Shown one piece after another: positions 24,525-31,166 of a stretch of 64,000 bases of DNA (position 1 is its first letter; every line of letters begins with the position of its first letter). The notes under the pieces are model-generated. The model saw only the letters and a program-made list of their open reading frames with translations. It ran no database searches and was not told the origin of the DNA. The DNA is from an uncultured Verrucomicrobiae bacterium (GTDB lineage Bacteria > Verrucomicrobiota > Verrucomicrobiia > Chthoniobacterales > UBA10450). The stretch lies in contig CAVTMK010000002.1 in the NCBI GenBank assembly GCA_963735805.1, positions 15,012-79,011 of the forward strand, in the 5' to 3' direction. Both the position numbers and the translations under genes were made by a program.

Positions 24525-25628
24525 ATGAAAAAACTGAGCATTGGAAACATTCTGGTGCCGATCGATTTCTCGAAGATGTCGATCCAGGCTATCGAAACTG
24601 CGAAAGGCTTGGCCCAGCCCTTTGGTGCCACCATCCATCTTGTGCACGTTCATCACTGGCAGTACTCCGCCGATTTTGTGGGACCGGTCATCTCATCGGG
24701 ATTTTTGCCCGCATCGTTCGAAGAGCATCGCAATAAACACTTGGCTGAGGAGTTCAAGACAATCGCCAGCAAAGCTCGATTATCCCCACGCGATAAAACC
24801 CACCTGAGAACAGGCGCCTCTGCATTTCAGGAGATTTGCACGCTGGCCCGGCAAATTCCCGCCGATCTGATCGTCATGCCGACACACGGCTACACCGGGA
24901 TCAAGCATGTGTTCCTCGGGAGCACGACGGAACGCGTCGTGCAGCATGCGCCCTGCCCAGTATTTGTTGTGCGACAACTCGGCAAACGGCCGGCCGAAGA
25001 AAAGTTTCGCTACAAGAAGGTTCTCGTACCGGTCGATTTCTCCGATTGCTCGCAGAAAGCGCTCCAGTACGCCATCGGGTTCGCGAATGAATTTGGGGCC
25101 GAGATCGTTTTGCTGCATGCCACTTACCTCGGTTACATCTATTCCGCCGAGGGCACGGCCCTGTATGACATTCCAGGCTTGCAAAAGGCTGCTCGCAAAG
25201 AAGCCGAGCACCAAATGCAAACGCTTGTCCGGGCGGCAAAGTTTGGACAAGTAAAATTTGAGACGGTCTTTACCGAGGCCTCGCCTGTCTTGGATATTTG
25301 CGCCTTTGCAAAACACCACGACGTCGATCTGATTATTACGTCGACGCACGGGGTGACCGGTTTCGAGCATGTCTTAATTGGGAGCATCGCAGAGAAAGTG
25401 GTCCGACATGCGCCCTGTTCCGTTCTGGTCGTGCCATCGCACCTTCGGATCAGAGCGGCGAATCTGGCAAAAACGCCCGGCACCAGGACCCGCGCAGCAG
25501 GCCAACAGCAACCACCCAAATCATCGAGAGGCAAAGCGCTCACGAAAAAAGATCGAAGGCTCGTTGCGAATGCCTTTCCCGAGCGCCGCAAAACGAACAA
25601 GTTTCGCGAATCGCATTTCGGTCGATGA
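24525..25628 (+). CDS. Universal stress protein, tandem USP domains with about 60-aa basic C-terminal tail
   Basis: [12 protein letters not shown]...[47 protein letters not shown]...[35 protein letters not shown]. Tail: RIRAANLAKTPGTRTRAAGQQQPPKSSRGKALTKKDRR...RRKTNKFRESHFGR. Confidence 0.9.
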   Translation: MKKLSIGNILVPIDFSKMSIQAIETAKGLAQPFGATIHLVHVHHWQYSADFVGPVISSGFLPASFEEHRNKHLAEEFKTIASKARLSPRDKTHLRTGASAFQEICTLARQIPADLIVMPTHGYTGIKHVFLGSTTERVVQHAPCPVFVVRQLGKRPAEEKFRYKKVLVPVDFSDCSQKALQYAIGFANEFGAEIVLLHATYLGYIYSAEGTALYDIPGLQKAARKEAEHQMQTLVRAAKFGQVKFETVFTEASPVLDICAFAKHHDVDLIITSTHGVTGFEHVLIGSIAEKVVRHAPCSVLVVPSHLRIRAANLAKTPGTRTRAAGQQQPPKSSRGKALTKKDRRLVANAFPERRKTNKFRESHFGR

Positions 25629-26452
25629 CAAAAGCCTTAGTCACGGCTGATTCCGGGATCACCTCGACGCGGCATGCTGTCGAACTGCGCGACGTGAGCA
25701 TGAGCTTCGGCGGCAAACAGGTTCTCGATGACGTTTCTCTGGTCGTCGATCCCCAGGAGCGCCTCGTCATCATCGGGCAAAGCGGCGCGGGCAAAACGAC
25801 GATTCTGCGGTTGATCCTGGGCATTCTGAAACCCAACAAAGGCTCGGTCTTGTTCAAGCAACACAAGGTTTCACAAATGAACGATCACGAGCTGGAAGCA
25901 ATTCGTATGCGGATGGGAATGGTATATCAAGATGCGGCGTTGCTAAGCTCGCTCACGGTGCGCGAAAACCTTGCTCTTCCTTTGCAGGAGTTGACGAACA
26001 AAACGCCCGTCGAAATCGACAAGCTAGTCGATGAAAAATTAGAAATGGTCGAGCTGACTGGTGAAGGCAAAGCGATGCCGTTCGAATTAAGTGGCGGCAT
26101 GCGCAAACGCGTCGGGCTTGCTCGTGCACTGATGATAGAGCCAGAATTAATTCTGTTCGACGAACCGACCCAGGGGTTGGATCCAGTCATAGCCGCATTG
26201 ATCGATGAGCTGATAATCGATCTTACCAAAAGAACGAAAACGACGTCCATCATCGTTACCCATCTAATGGACAGCGCGTTTCGCGTGGCCACCCGCATGG
26301 CCATGTTGCACCGTGGAAAAATCATCGAACAAGGAACACCCCAGCACATGCGGCAATCAAAGAATCCGGTGGTCGTACAGTTCTTAAGCGGTAGCACCGA
26401 GGGCCCAATCTTTGAGCGCAGCAAATATCACATGCTCTCACCGGCCGATTAA
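25625..26452 (+). CDS. ABC transporter ATP-binding protein (MlaF/Mkl-like), orphan: no permease or substrate-binding gene nearby
   Basis: Walker A GQSGAGKTT, signature LSGGMRKRVGLARAL, Walker B LILFDEPTQGLD and the H-loop VTH. The ATG at 25625 overlaps the USP stop (ATGA). The track ORF from 25298 is an upstream in-frame extension. Confidence 0.9.
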   Translation: MTKALVTADSGITSTRHAVELRDVSMSFGGKQVLDDVSLVVDPQERLVIIGQSGAGKTTILRLILGILKPNKGSVLFKQHKVSQMNDHELEAIRMRMGMVYQDAALLSSLTVRENLALPLQELTNKTPVEIDKLVDEKLEMVELTGEGKAMPFELSGGMRKRVGLARALMIEPELILFDEPTQGLDPVIAALIDELIIDLTKRTKTTSIIVTHLMDSAFRVATRMAMLHRGKIIEQGTPQHMRQSKNPVVVQFLSGSTEGPIFERSKYHMLSPAD

Positions 26453-26704
26453 CATCGAACAAAAACGCTTACCTTCATCCATATCGAAGACCAAGAACTC
26501 GGCGCGGGACTCTCCTGTGGAACTGCTTTCCGCCCCGCGCTAGGCCTCGTCGCGCCCGCAACGCACTCTACAAATCCAGGCGCACGGATCGCCGCAGATA
26601 TAACCAGCGCAACAACAAGCGGGAAAGCGCATAAGAGATGTAAGAACGCTCAGGTTGAATTTGACGAAAAACTCGGAATTTAACCTTCTTTTTCGCCGCC
26701 TGGT

Positions 26705-29821: not shown

Positions 29822-29831
29822 CAAAAATTGT

Positions 29832-31166
29832 ATGCCAAAATCTCTGGTTGATCTCGTCAGTGAAAAATCGGAAGCCCTGGTTGGTTCGCCTAACGACTTT
29901 GATTCCCTTGTCGATTTAATCGGCGATGCGCGTTTTGTTTTGCTCGGCGAAGCAAGTCACGGGACGCATGAGTTTTATCGAATTCGGGCACAAATCTCGA
30001 AAGTCCTGATAGCCAGACGCGGTTTTAGTGCCATCGCGGTAGAAGCCGATTGGCCGGACGCATATCGCCTGAACCGATTCGTTCGCGGGGTAGGGAATGA
30101 CAGCGACAGCGTGGAGGCACTAGGTGGATTTCGACGCTTCCCACAATGGATGTGGCGAAATGCTGATGTACTCGATTTTGTCGGTTGGCTCCGCGAACAC
30201 AATGACGAGCAAGCGTTTGAAGATCGGAAGTGTGGATTCTACGGCCTCGATCTTTACAGTTTGCATGCTTCGATTGAGGCGGTGCTCGCTTATCTGGACA
30301 AGCTCGACCCGGAGACAGCAAAACGCGCGCGAAATTACTACAGTTGTTTCGAGCACTTTGGTAAAGACATCACAACTTACGGATATGCTGCCGGCTTTCA
30401 CATGACCCCGTCCTGCGAGGAGGCTGTCGTAGAAAGCCTCGTCGAGCTGCGCCGCAAAGCGATGGATTACCTGCAACGCGACGGCCAGGTCGCGGCCGAT
30501 GCATATTTTTGCGCGGAACAAAACGCGCTGGTTGTGCGAAACGCCGAAGAGTATTACCGGAATATGTTTCGGCGCGAAATTTCCTCATGGAACCTGCGCG
30601 ATAGCCACATGATGGAGTCGCTCCTTCGCATCGCAATTCATCTGAGCAACCAAAAACCGCCGGCGAAAGTTATCGTTTGGGCGCACAATTCACACTTGGG
30701 CGACGCGCGCGCGACACAAATGGGCGACCGGGGAGAACTCAATCTCGGCCAGCTGGTACGCGAACATTTTGGAAAGGAAGTCGTTTCCATCGGGTTCACT
30801 ACCTACGACGGCACAGTCACGGCGGCGTCCGACTGGGACGGACCGGCTGAGCGCAAAAATGTGCGTCCGGCGCATCCGGACAGTTATGAAGCGCTTTTTC
30901 ATCAGGTTGATGTTCCAAATTTCTTTCTCGACTTCAGAAAAAGTGTTGATGTTACCGCGTTGCTGCGCAATGAACGTCTCGAGCGAGCGATTGGTGTCAT
31001 TTACCGCCCGGATACAGAATTGATCAGTCATTACTTCCATGCACGCTTACCAGATCAATTCGACGCCATCCTGCATTACGATCACACTCGCGCTGTTGAA
31101 CCGCTTGAACGGACCGCTGAATGGGAAATGGGTGAAGTTGAAGAAACCTTCCCCAGCGGGCTTTGA
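29832..31166 (+). CDS. Erythromycin-esterase-family protein
   Basis: ARFVLLGEASHGTHEFYRIRAQISKVLIARRGFSAIAVEADWPDAYRLNRFVRG, RDSHMMESL and VWAHNSHLGDAR. The ATG lies 10 nt after the USP stop. Confidence 0.85.
   Translation: MPKSLVDLVSEKSEALVGSPNDFDSLVDLIGDARFVLLGEASHGTHEFYRIRAQISKVLIARRGFSAIAVEADWPDAYRLNRFVRGVGNDSDSVEALGGFRRFPQWMWRNADVLDFVGWLREHNDEQAFEDRKCGFYGLDLYSLHASIEAVLAYLDKLDPETAKRARNYYSCFEHFGKDITTYGYAAGFHMTPSCEEAVVESLVELRRKAMDYLQRDGQVAADAYFCAEQNALVVRNAEEYYRNMFRREISSWNLRDSHMMESLLRIAIHLSNQKPPAKVIVWAHNSHLGDARATQMGDRGELNLGQLVREHFGKEVVSIGFTTYDGTVTAASDWDGPAERKNVRPAHPDSYEALFHQVDVPNFFLDFRKSVDVTALLRNERLERAIGVIYRPDTELISHYFHARLPDQFDAILHYDHTRAVEPLERTAEWEMGEVEETFPSGL

Follow-up and report, generated by a model that had tools for sequence, protein, structure and literature searches.

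The window, a 64,000-nt stretch that forms part of a Candidatus Udaeobacter-like Verrucomicrobiota genome, contains three paralogous genes for tandem universal stress proteins (USPs), each lying before a gene for a different enzyme. This arrangement, the core of the original prediction, was confirmed by gene coordinates, Pfam domains and junction sequence. The genes concerned, and a fourth tandem USP gene, are the following.

22792..23754, + strand: USP0, fourth tandem USP, with no tightly coupled enzyme 3' of it (two PF00582 domains, E 8e-67)
24525..25628, + strand: USP1, tandem USP of 367 aa with a basic C-terminal tail (two PF00582 domains)
25437..25625, + strand: USP1 tail, a variable basic linker followed by a conserved end motif, ...FPERRKTNKFRESH (alignments A2 and A4)
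25625..26452, + strand: ABC, orphan MlaF/MceG-like ABC ATPase of 275 aa (ABC_tran, PF00005)
27047..28054, + strand: USP2, tandem USP of 335 aa (two PF00582 domains, E 9e-71)
28051..28713, + strand: PRT, TT1426-type phosphoribosyltransferase-fold protein of 220 aa (Pribosyltran, PF00156)
28841..29821, + strand: USP3, tandem USP of 326 aa (two PF00582 domains)
29832..31166, + strand: ERE, erythromycin-esterase-family protein of 444 aa (Erythro_esteras, PF05139, E 1e-136)

At the USP1/ABC junction, the ATG at 25625-27 overlaps the TGA at 25626-28 (ATGA), and the USP2/PRT junction is built in the same way, with the ATG at 28051-53 overlapping the TGA at 28052-54 (ATGA). The stop of USP3 ends at 29821 and the ERE ATG begins at 29832, leaving a 10-nt gap. 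All three junctions are bridged by contigs from four other soil runs; one bridging contig from another soil run spans 27747-31200 with 0 differences. USP2 has an alternative TTG start at 27026. A start for ABC further upstream, in the frame open from 25298, was rejected because that frame contains stops in relatives.

USP1-3 each contain two stretches matched by PF00582 (E 5e-62 to 9e-71), the criterion for a tandem-type USP. Their description as clear paralogs with one two-domain layout held, but the count of three was incomplete: USP0, at 22792-23754, had been overlooked. USP1-3 are 42–48% identical to USP0 (first row of alignment A1), the two-domain layout is common to all four, and USP0 falls into its own ortholog clade in the tree. 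ATP-binding USPs of the MJ0577 type carry the motif G-2x-G-9x-G(S/T). In the alignment to 1mjh, Ser stands in place of the first Gly of MJ0577 and the remaining G-9x-G-S is kept. As read by eye from the alignments, five of the six USP1-3 domains have another residue in place of the first motif Gly, and the full motif is found in domain 1 of USP3 only; nucleotide binding by these proteins is therefore assumed. According to passages of a review, a USP that lacks the typical pattern can still bind ATP.

The pairs belong to a USP-rich island of ~45 kb (window about 9-58 kb), which adjoins dnaA/dnaN. Inside the window fall 15 of the genome's 22 matches to the USP domain (PF00582). This genome had the most USP matches among 61 sampled genomes of its order, in which family mates had 8–20, most other families 0–7, and one family (f7) 6–13. 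Ca. Udaeobacter is among the most abundant uncultured soil bacteria. In the Pfam scan, the island also contained four P-type ATPases, PPK2, PfkB, a Zn-ADH, a PEP-utilising enzyme, a CBS pair, DUF2267 and cNMP-binding proteins. Its remaining features of interest are these.

14868..15404, + strand: single-domain USP (PF00582) after an MFS transporter gene
18511..22429, + strand: small-sensor genes, namely a cNMP-binding protein, a cNMP-binding acyltransferase, a CBS-pair protein, DUF2267 and a Host_attach protein
35274..37143, + strand: genes for a polysaccharide deacetylase, a basic-tailed single USP (36071-36760) and a receiver-domain protein (36757-37143), in that order
38199..39197: PfkB
41910..43297, + strand: tandem USP (41910-42836), 4 nt after the PEP-utilising enzyme, then a single USP domain (about 42881-43297)
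56567..57445, - strand: tandem USP, 5 nt after a TauE/SafE exporter gene (57451-58377, - strand)

USPs thus also lie directly 3' of a neighbour gene, after the deacetylase (35274-36074), the PEP-utilising enzyme (39416-41905) and TauE (57451-58377, - strand). Exact 4-nt overlaps were found in 9 of the 45 same-strand adjacent gene pairs of the window, and five of the nine involve no USP. Both junctions of the deacetylase/USP/receiver set overlap in this way, as do cNMP-binding protein/cNMP-binding acyltransferase and DUF2267/Host_attach within the small-sensor group. Because such overlaps join 20% of same-strand pairs in the window, translational coupling is unspecific as evidence. The ATGA overlap at USP1-ABC is kept in 13 relatives.

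The regulatory scans were negative within their scope. The scanned ORFs of the window included no DosR-type regulator and no histidine kinase, and their sole receiver protein (36757-37143) is without an output domain. In 17 island intergenic regions no shared upstream motif emerged from a crude search, weak as a method, for 12-mers allowing one mismatch at most; a scan of 22000-32600 for sigma-70 promoters and terminators gave no excess over shuffled sequence; and Rfam matched one tRNA only in the whole window, with no riboswitch ahead of any module. No RNA run was listed as covering 24400-31200. Among the papers listed on Udaeobacter with universal stress or dormancy, none concerned this island, to judge by titles and opening lines of abstracts. 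Since the island is compact and holds two thirds of the genome's USP domains, we regard it as a candidate survival or dormancy programme.

Conservation of adjacency in other genomes had been set beforehand as the test of the pairs, and the outcome was divided. Of 43 loci with a close ABC homolog, 29 have a tandem USP directly 5' of ABC, 13 of these with the ATG-in-ATGA overlap, whereas a USP lies directly 5' of ERE in only 4 of the best 80 ERE loci and directly 5' of PRT in 3 of 74 PRT loci. All but one of these seven USP-ERE and USP-PRT loci come from Verrucomicrobiota-type MAGs. Judged by gene neighbourhoods, the USP-ABC adjacency appears conserved, the USP-ERE adjacency appears lineage-specific, and the USP-PRT adjacency appears the weakest of the three.

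The partner of ERE is more often PRT. PRT matched PDB 1wd5 (E 1e-36), and a PRPP-type motif is readable in its translation. ERE matched PDB 2rad/3b55 at 1e-26 and EreC at 4e-8, so that EreA/B/C are more distant from it by sequence than these Bacillus 'succinoglycan biosynthesis protein' structures are. Against the Ere models it scored 66 bits (EreB) and 33 bits (EreA) for a cut-off of 750, which leaves membership of the superfamily PF05139 only; on these cut-offs, a true macrolide esterase was rejected. PRT lies directly 5' of ERE in 38 of the best 80 ERE loci, in several phyla. Of the best 120 longer ERE homologs, 116 have PF00156 listed and so are PRT-ERE fusions; by hand count, 82 of these have an alpha/beta-hydrolase family as well. 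A USP fusion occurs in one of the 120. A mycobacterial MAG locus (L065) encodes a fused PRT-ERE protein. Other Chthoniobacterales have a weak alpha/beta-hydrolase ORF ahead of PRT that overlaps it by 4 nt, and in this genome the alpha/beta-hydrolase partner lies some 400 kb away beside a second PRT copy. Of 68 ERE loci outside Verrucomicrobiota, 29 have, within 4 kb, a gene for a USP, a CBS protein, a P-type ATPase, an ADH or a PEP-utilising enzyme (PPS). Taken together, PRT and ERE are probably ancient partners and parts of one widespread multi-part enzyme. The 'erythromycin esterase' and 'phosphoribosyltransferase' genes of dormancy regulons should be studied jointly, and not as resistance or salvage genes.

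Relatives present graded orders between PRT and ERE, from PRT-ERE through PRT-CBS-USP-ERE and PRT-DUF2267-HostAttach-USP-ERE to PRT-USP-ERE. In the tree, ERE follows all nine members of the USP3 clade. In the USP2 clade, PRT is directly next in 4 of 10 rows, and a small ORF, GroEL or ERE takes that place elsewhere. The original prediction proposed each tandem USP as a dedicated nucleotide-sensing partner or regulatory subunit of the enzyme directly 3' of it, produced in matched amounts through translational coupling, as a general architecture. We consider this unlikely. It is favoured by the faithfulness of two paralogs, each with its own clade and its own 3' gene (USP1 with ABC in 14 of 16 rows of the tree, USP3 with ERE in 9 of 9), by the persistence of both pairs amid changing surrounding gene order, by the ATGA overlap kept in thirteen relatives of USP1-ABC and, in the published passages available, by single-case precedents of USP-partner regulation. 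However, outside one lineage the proposed clients have no USP neighbour (4/80 ERE and 3/74 PRT loci), long ERE homologs are fused to PRT and hardly ever to a USP (116 versus 1 of 120), USP2 is unfaithful to PRT, USP0 has no coupled client, four other window USPs come after their neighbour, and the overlaps on which coupling would depend are common in the window (9/45 pairs). What survives of the idea of one USP per client is the USP1-ABC pair, where a link is plausible; PRT and ERE partner each other (38/80 loci, 116/120 fusions).

The orphan state of the ABC ATPase was borne out, as neither a permease nor a binding-protein partner was found by Pfam among the 60 window ORFs scanned. The genome's three MlaE permease genes lie outside the window, each with its own adjacent ATPase, and the window ATPase lacks the MlaE adjacency expected of an MlaF. 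MlaF (NF008809) was its best-scoring model, at 196 bits against a cut-off of 441. The closest solved chains are MlaF structures and 8fed_G (entry 8FED, 'ABC transporter ATP-binding protein'), which we take to be MceG of Mce1. Residues K57, Q102, S156-G158, D179-E180 and H213 are invariant in a 42-row alignment (A3), and with its Walker A, Q-loop, signature SGG, Walker B and H-loop the protein is predicted to be a catalytically competent ATPase. Only 5 of 15 family genomes have an ortholog of at least 71% identity, and the 60% tier is the MlaE-linked paralog. The best reading is that the ATPase would be a young, family-restricted duplicate of a permease-linked MlaF that nearly always ends an operon begun by USP genes.

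The ABC-linked USP ends in a rare C-terminal motif (…PERRKTNKFRESH), which co-occurs with the ATPase. Among 1.84 billion representatives the end motif ...FPERRKTNKFRESH has only 31 matches, every one C-terminal, and its carriers are USPs, one receiver protein, or stand-alone proteins of 55–69 aa. The tail motif was found in 32 of the 43 ABC loci. A strong tail match lies within 3.5 kb in six of six family genomes with an ATPase ortholog, versus one of ten without. The tail is conserved even where another gene intervenes before ABC, and in three loci (L179, L180 and L190) it is retained as a short ORF directly 5' of ABC. The reading of the tail as a coupling element conserved at the nucleotide level was rejected, since its conservation is just as strong where a USP or receiver gene, and not ABC, comes next. 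A complex prediction of the ABC ATPase (A3) with USP1 (A2), run without controls, scored 0.01 against a mark of 0.32 and carries no weight either way.

Two features of the sample bear on these counts. Most ABC-pattern loci come from one bacterial family, so the counts are inflated by inherited synteny. In addition, the tree places two distinct USP clades directly before ABC in separate sub-lineages, which argues against one fixed USP-ABC pair. A neutral arrangement is a further alternative: duplicated USPs would have landed in pre-existing stress operons, and adjacency would reflect shared transcription and recent descent, with no USP acting on any neighbour, ABC included. The expansion of USPs in this bacterial family, the fluid gene order of the island, the close kinship of the pair-bearing loci and the tight spacing that is the rule in a compact genome are all consistent with it. 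Yet the orphan ATPase and the USP with the tail share their presence and absence across genomes (6/6 versus 1/10), and the tail peptide is retained directly before ABC after loss of the USP domains. Furthermore, a small sensor nearly always occupies the position 5' of ABC (of the 43 loci, 29 have a USP there, 4 a cNMP-binding protein and 4 a receiver protein), whereas the gene 3' of ABC varies among relatives. We therefore judge purely neutral adjacency improbable.

We lean, with little more than even confidence, towards co-regulated sensor-plus-effector stress operons in which the USPs would serve as state sensors and only USP1 would be linked directly to its ATPase. The island would be of a stress or dormancy type, with small nucleotide- or signal-binding proteins (USP, cNMP-binding, CBS, receiver) interleaved with enzymes and transporters in tight operons, and its three pairs would have different histories. 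PRT and ERE would be two parts of an old multi-part enzyme, often with an alpha/beta hydrolase as third part, ahead of which USP2 and USP3, respectively, would have been inserted in the Udaeobacter lineage. As nucleotide-binding state sensors, the USPs would be co-produced with their operon mates at low energy or oxygen, a link that for PRT and ERE would be mainly one of co-expression. USP1 may control its ATPase directly, via the conserved C-terminal peptide, in an MlaB-like accessory role; the ATPase could then serve the cell's MlaE-type permeases, as orphan MceG serves several Mce systems. Gene anatomy, phyletic patterns, fusions and the tail motif are what was observed; co-regulation, nucleotide binding and any physical contact belong to the interpretation. 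The nine of nine USP3-clade genes followed by ERE would also fit a true USP3-ERE partnership, which we rate lower. Since only the pairing with the stand-alone ATPase is widely kept, we see here for the most part an ordinary stress island, in which one detail is unusual, and the tail-bearing USP with its orphan MlaF-like ATPase offers a small testable case of how a USP may act on a defined partner. That the rare peptide ...FPERRKTNKFRESH, which occurs in USP1, in some receiver proteins or as a free-standing 55-aa protein, is a portable docking or control module, by which a new orphan MlaF/MceG-type ATPase takes over MlaE-type lipid transporters when a USP senses low energy, in an island of interchangeable sensor-plus-effector pairs, strikes us as very doubtful.

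In its gene content the island resembles the mycobacterial dormancy regulon, whose wider list of DosR genes includes, among others, ctpF and the CBS protein Rv2626c. The Rv2028c/pfkB/Rv2030c arrangement, named in the original prediction, is described in passages of PMC4410610, which report the M. tuberculosis Rv2028c-Rv2031c operon as hypoxia-induced; among the literature extracts searched, this paper alone joins USP, Ere and PRT as a system. That operon, part of the DosR dormancy regulon, comprises a USP, PfkB, the PRT+Ere fusion Rv2030c and HspX, and shares tandem USP, PRT, Ere and PfkB with the window. In the window, in contrast, PRT and ERE are separate genes, each behind its own USP; neither DosR/DosS/DosT nor HspX was seen; and the host belongs to Verrucomicrobiota. 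The ~880-aa triple fusions named 'erythromycin esterase-like / phosphoribosyltransferase / dienelactone hydrolase', mostly alphaproteobacterial by source name, contain the same ERE and PRT modules, which in the window are separate genes with USP3 between them, the alpha/beta-hydrolase lying with the second PRT ~400 kb off. MlaB is the accessory protein of MlaFEDB. The window ATPase differs from that system in scoring under the MlaF cut-off, in a genome whose three MlaE genes already have their own ATPase, and its accessory protein would be a USP and not a STAS protein like MlaB. As with MceG (Mkl), its gene lies apart from any permease gene. That a USP may work with a client is in general not new, although the original prediction knew of no such architecture described as a system: USP action on partners is in print, in the passages available, for the single cases Rv2623-Rv1747 and SaUspA-PP2A. 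In PMC5549992, the tandem USP Rv2623 is functionally tied to the ABC transporter Rv1747. There, contact is through an FHA domain, and the partner is a full transporter whose gene lies elsewhere in the genome. The window likewise combines the genes of a tandem USP and an ABC transport ATPase, but this ATPase, unlike Rv1747, consists of the nucleotide-binding domain only, lacks an FHA domain and is encoded directly after its USP.

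Re-reading the sequence bore out the coordinates and junctions of the three USP-enzyme pairs and revealed a fourth tandem USP that the original prediction did not include. The genes are as follows.

22792-23754, + strand: USP0, the additional tandem USP, just upstream of the three pairs
24525-25628, + strand: USP1, with two PF00582 domains
25625-26452, + strand: orphan MlaF/MceG-like ABC ATPase (ABC), downstream of USP1 with an ATGA overlap
27047-28054, + strand: USP2, with two PF00582 domains
28051-28713, + strand: phosphoribosyltransferase-fold protein (PRT), downstream of USP2 with an ATGA overlap
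28841-29821, + strand: USP3, with two PF00582 domains
29832-31166, + strand: erythromycin-esterase-family protein (ERE), downstream of USP3 after a 10-nt gap

Contigs of four other soil metagenome runs spanned all three junctions with 0 differences; thus, misassembly does not account for the gene order. In a tandem-USP alignment (A1), USP1, USP2 and USP3 were 42–48% identical to USP0 and shared its two-domain layout. Nucleotide binding by these USPs is putative: in the typical ATP motif of the family, G-2x-G-9x-G(S/T), the first glycine was replaced in most domains of USP1–3. An ORF between USP0 and USP1 (23615-24322), which has no Pfam match, is found in the same place in two relatives' loci (L155, L157), and USP0, too, may have a conserved downstream neighbour in it. 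The 594-nt gap between ABC and USP2 (26453-27046) may contain a minus-strand ORF of ~60 codons (~26700-26900), and a GC hairpin with a T-run (27008-27030) lies immediately 5' of the USP2 start.

The USP-enzyme modules had been described as translationally coupled. Exact 4-nt overlaps were present in 9 of the 45 same-strand adjacent pairs in the window, five of them without any USP, so coupling is the local norm and not a mark of these modules. Other USPs of the island directly follow, rather than precede, their neighbours (a deacetylase, a PEP-utilising enzyme and TauE). At 18511-20492, a 159-aa cNMP-binding protein is followed, with a 4-nt overlap, by a 501-aa protein combining cNMP-binding and PlsC-type acyltransferase parts; this is another sensor-before-enzyme pair, free of USPs.

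The predicted conservation of USP-ABC adjacency held up among close relatives. Close homologs of ABC (≥67% identity; the next-best match falls to 44%) defined 43 loci, nearly all in Chthoniobacterales-type MAGs, and a tandem USP was upstream in 29 of them, 13 with the same ATG-in-ATGA overlap. Four loci instead had a cNMP-binding protein before ABC; in three of these (L169, L171, L172) an ORF of 167-259 aa ending at 3004 shares 4 nt with the start of ABC. A receiver-domain protein, itself preceded by a USP, took the position in four more (L176, L187-L189), ERE in two and an unlabelled gene in four. Different small sensor proteins fill one slot before ABC. The gene after ABC was not constant (USP, NUDIX, peptidoglycan-binding protein, HSP20, SDR, multicopper oxidase or opposite-strand genes), and at none of the ABC loci was the downstream neighbour a permease.

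A tree built on the 97 tandem USPs of all loci placed every window paralog in its own ortholog clade. ABC was the next gene in 14/16 rows of the USP1 clade and ERE in 9/9 rows of the USP3 clade, while PRT directly followed in 4/10 rows of the USP2 clade; in the remainder, PRT came after a small ORF, or the next gene was GroEL or ERE. A second sub-lineage has the order USP-USP-USP-ABC; there a USP of a different clade touches ABC, with the USP1-like gene at a greater distance upstream. Because two clades occupy the slot, ABC trails a USP array and not the same USP in every case.

USP1 orthologs end in a tail, a variable basic linker followed by the conserved motif …R-K-x-R-K-L-x-x-H-A-F-P-E-R-R-K-T-N-K-F-R-E-S-H, located two to eleven residues before the stop. 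It was found in 27 loci by strict pattern and in 5 further loci as close variants. The tail remains conserved when a further USP gene or a receiver gene lies between it and ABC, so it is the peptide itself that is constrained. L179, L180 and L190 carry it as a short ORF immediately ahead of ABC. Two Udaeobacter MAG loci have an in-frame stop between the USP1 body and the tail (L157, ~2600-2723; L158, ~2885-3004), leaving a 39-codon stop-to-stop frame that lacks a start codon and ends in an ATGA overlap with ABC; read-through, a sequencing error or a recent break could account for this. Only 31 of 1.84 billion representative proteins matched a profile built from 23 tails, in every case at the C-terminus. 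Seventeen matches were at least 114 aa long, 15 of them USPs and one a receiver protein, and at least seven were complete proteins of 55-69 aa. In the family sample, a strong tail match lay within 3.5 kb of ABC in 6/6 genomes with an ABC ortholog, and 1/10 genomes without the ortholog had one, a co-occurrence that is suggestive but, the sampled genomes being kin, not a statistic. The window also encodes a single-domain USP with a 70-aa basic tail (36071-36760), whose next gene is a receiver-only protein with a 4-nt overlap; P0146, the protein representing a relative 47% identical to this USP, gave a weak match to the USP1 tail profile (E 1.6e-6).

The catalytic motifs of ABC are invariant. MlaF was its best-matching model, with a score under the cut-off, and its closest solved chains were MlaF and 8fed_G, from an entry named only 'ABC transporter ATP-binding protein' that we take to be Mce1/MceG. 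Three MlaE permeases are encoded elsewhere in the genome, and each is accompanied by an ATPase of its own; one of those ATPases is 60% identical to ABC. Orthologs of at least 71% identity were present in 5 of 15 family genomes. This family restriction, the match to MlaF and the permease-free setting mark ABC as an orphan that arose recently as a paralog of a lipid-transport ATPase.

PRT and ERE gave a different picture. A USP lay directly upstream of PRT in 3/74 PRT loci, all close Udaeobacter-type relatives, and the 58 other ORFs upstream of PRT included no USP, so the predicted adjacency did not extend beyond close kin. Of the best 80 ERE loci, 38 had PRT as the immediate upstream gene and 4 had a tandem USP there (L001, L005 and L007 from Verrucomicrobiota-type MAGs, L033 from an unclassified 'bacterium' MAG); a Pfam check of 30 other upstream ORFs revealed no USP, and five loci had no upstream candidate. 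Four further loci had PRT just downstream of ERE, and one protein of a Mycobacterium MAG locus is a PRT-ERE fusion, in agreement with Rv2030c as described in PMC4410610. Among the best 120 ERE homologs longer than 778 aa, a PRT family was listed in 116, an alpha/beta-hydrolase family also in 82 of these (by hand count), and a USP in one, together with CBS. From this adjacency and these fusions, PRT and ERE belong to a single old enzyme set, in which a hydrolase is often the third component, and the true partner of each is the other rather than a USP. Between PRT and ERE, relatives show a graded series of nothing, CBS-USP, DUF2267-HostAttach-USP or USP alone, of which later insertion of USP3 is the simplest reading. 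The proposed USP-plus-client architecture thus holds in part: USP-client pairing is real and persistent within the lineage, but neither old nor general for PRT and ERE.

In seven other Chthoniobacterales loci, the upstream gene, for a ~235-aa protein, overlaps PRT by 4 nt, and neighbours related to this protein have weak alpha/beta-hydrolase matches. A second PRT in the window's genome (L209, G000:C2 ~472-474 kb; 254 bits to the window PRT) adjoins an alpha/beta-hydrolase gene ~400 kb from the island. A conserved ~160-aa ORF with no Pfam match lies between a USP2-type gene and PRT at L159 (5123-5614) and L166 (4969-5460), and similar sequence is located upstream of ABC at L191. PRT matched Thermus TT1426 (1wd5; E 1e-36). 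ERE was matched far better by Bacillus "succinoglycan biosynthesis protein" structures than by EreC, and its score was far below the EreA/EreB model cut-offs; the name macrolide esterase is thus not warranted. Its best relative came from a Candidatus Udaeobacter MAG (92% identity), followed by Chthoniobacterales.

The genome (3.5 Mb, four contigs) places 15 of its 22 USP-domain matches inside the window (C2:15012-79011). Its genome-wide count is the highest among 61 sampled genomes of the order; four family mates had 8-20, family f7 6-13 and most other families 0-7. The region at ~9-58 kb also encodes four P-type ATPases, PPK2, three cNMP-binding proteins, a CBS-pair protein, DUF2267, a receiver-only protein, Zn-ADH, PfkB, a PEP-utilising enzyme and a 2-hydroxyacid dehydrogenase. 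Because dnaA and dnaN (minus strand, 6019-8744) lie directly beside its start, the island adjoins the likely replication origin. One P-type ATPase is divided between two ORFs (9944-11083 and 11073-12464; 11-nt overlap), with the N-terminal domain on one and the hydrolase domain on the other, which may be a frameshift or sequencing error. The mechanically listed ORF 55035-55538 contains a tRNA gene (55379-55451, minus strand) and is probably no gene. A crude search of 17 intergenic regions of the island (12-mers, ≤1 mismatch) found no shared operator.

If any USP acts directly on its client, the strongest candidate would be USP1 with the orphan ATPase: the slot before the ATPase nearly always holds some small sensor, and the ATPase is present or absent along with the tail-bearing USP. 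The island as a whole probably consists of co-regulated sensor-plus-effector stress operons. Its gene content resembles that of the mycobacterial dormancy regulon; however, the scanned ORFs of the window included no DosR-type regulator. USPs acting on partners have already been published as single cases, Rv2623-Rv1747 (PMC5549992) and SaUspA-PP2A.
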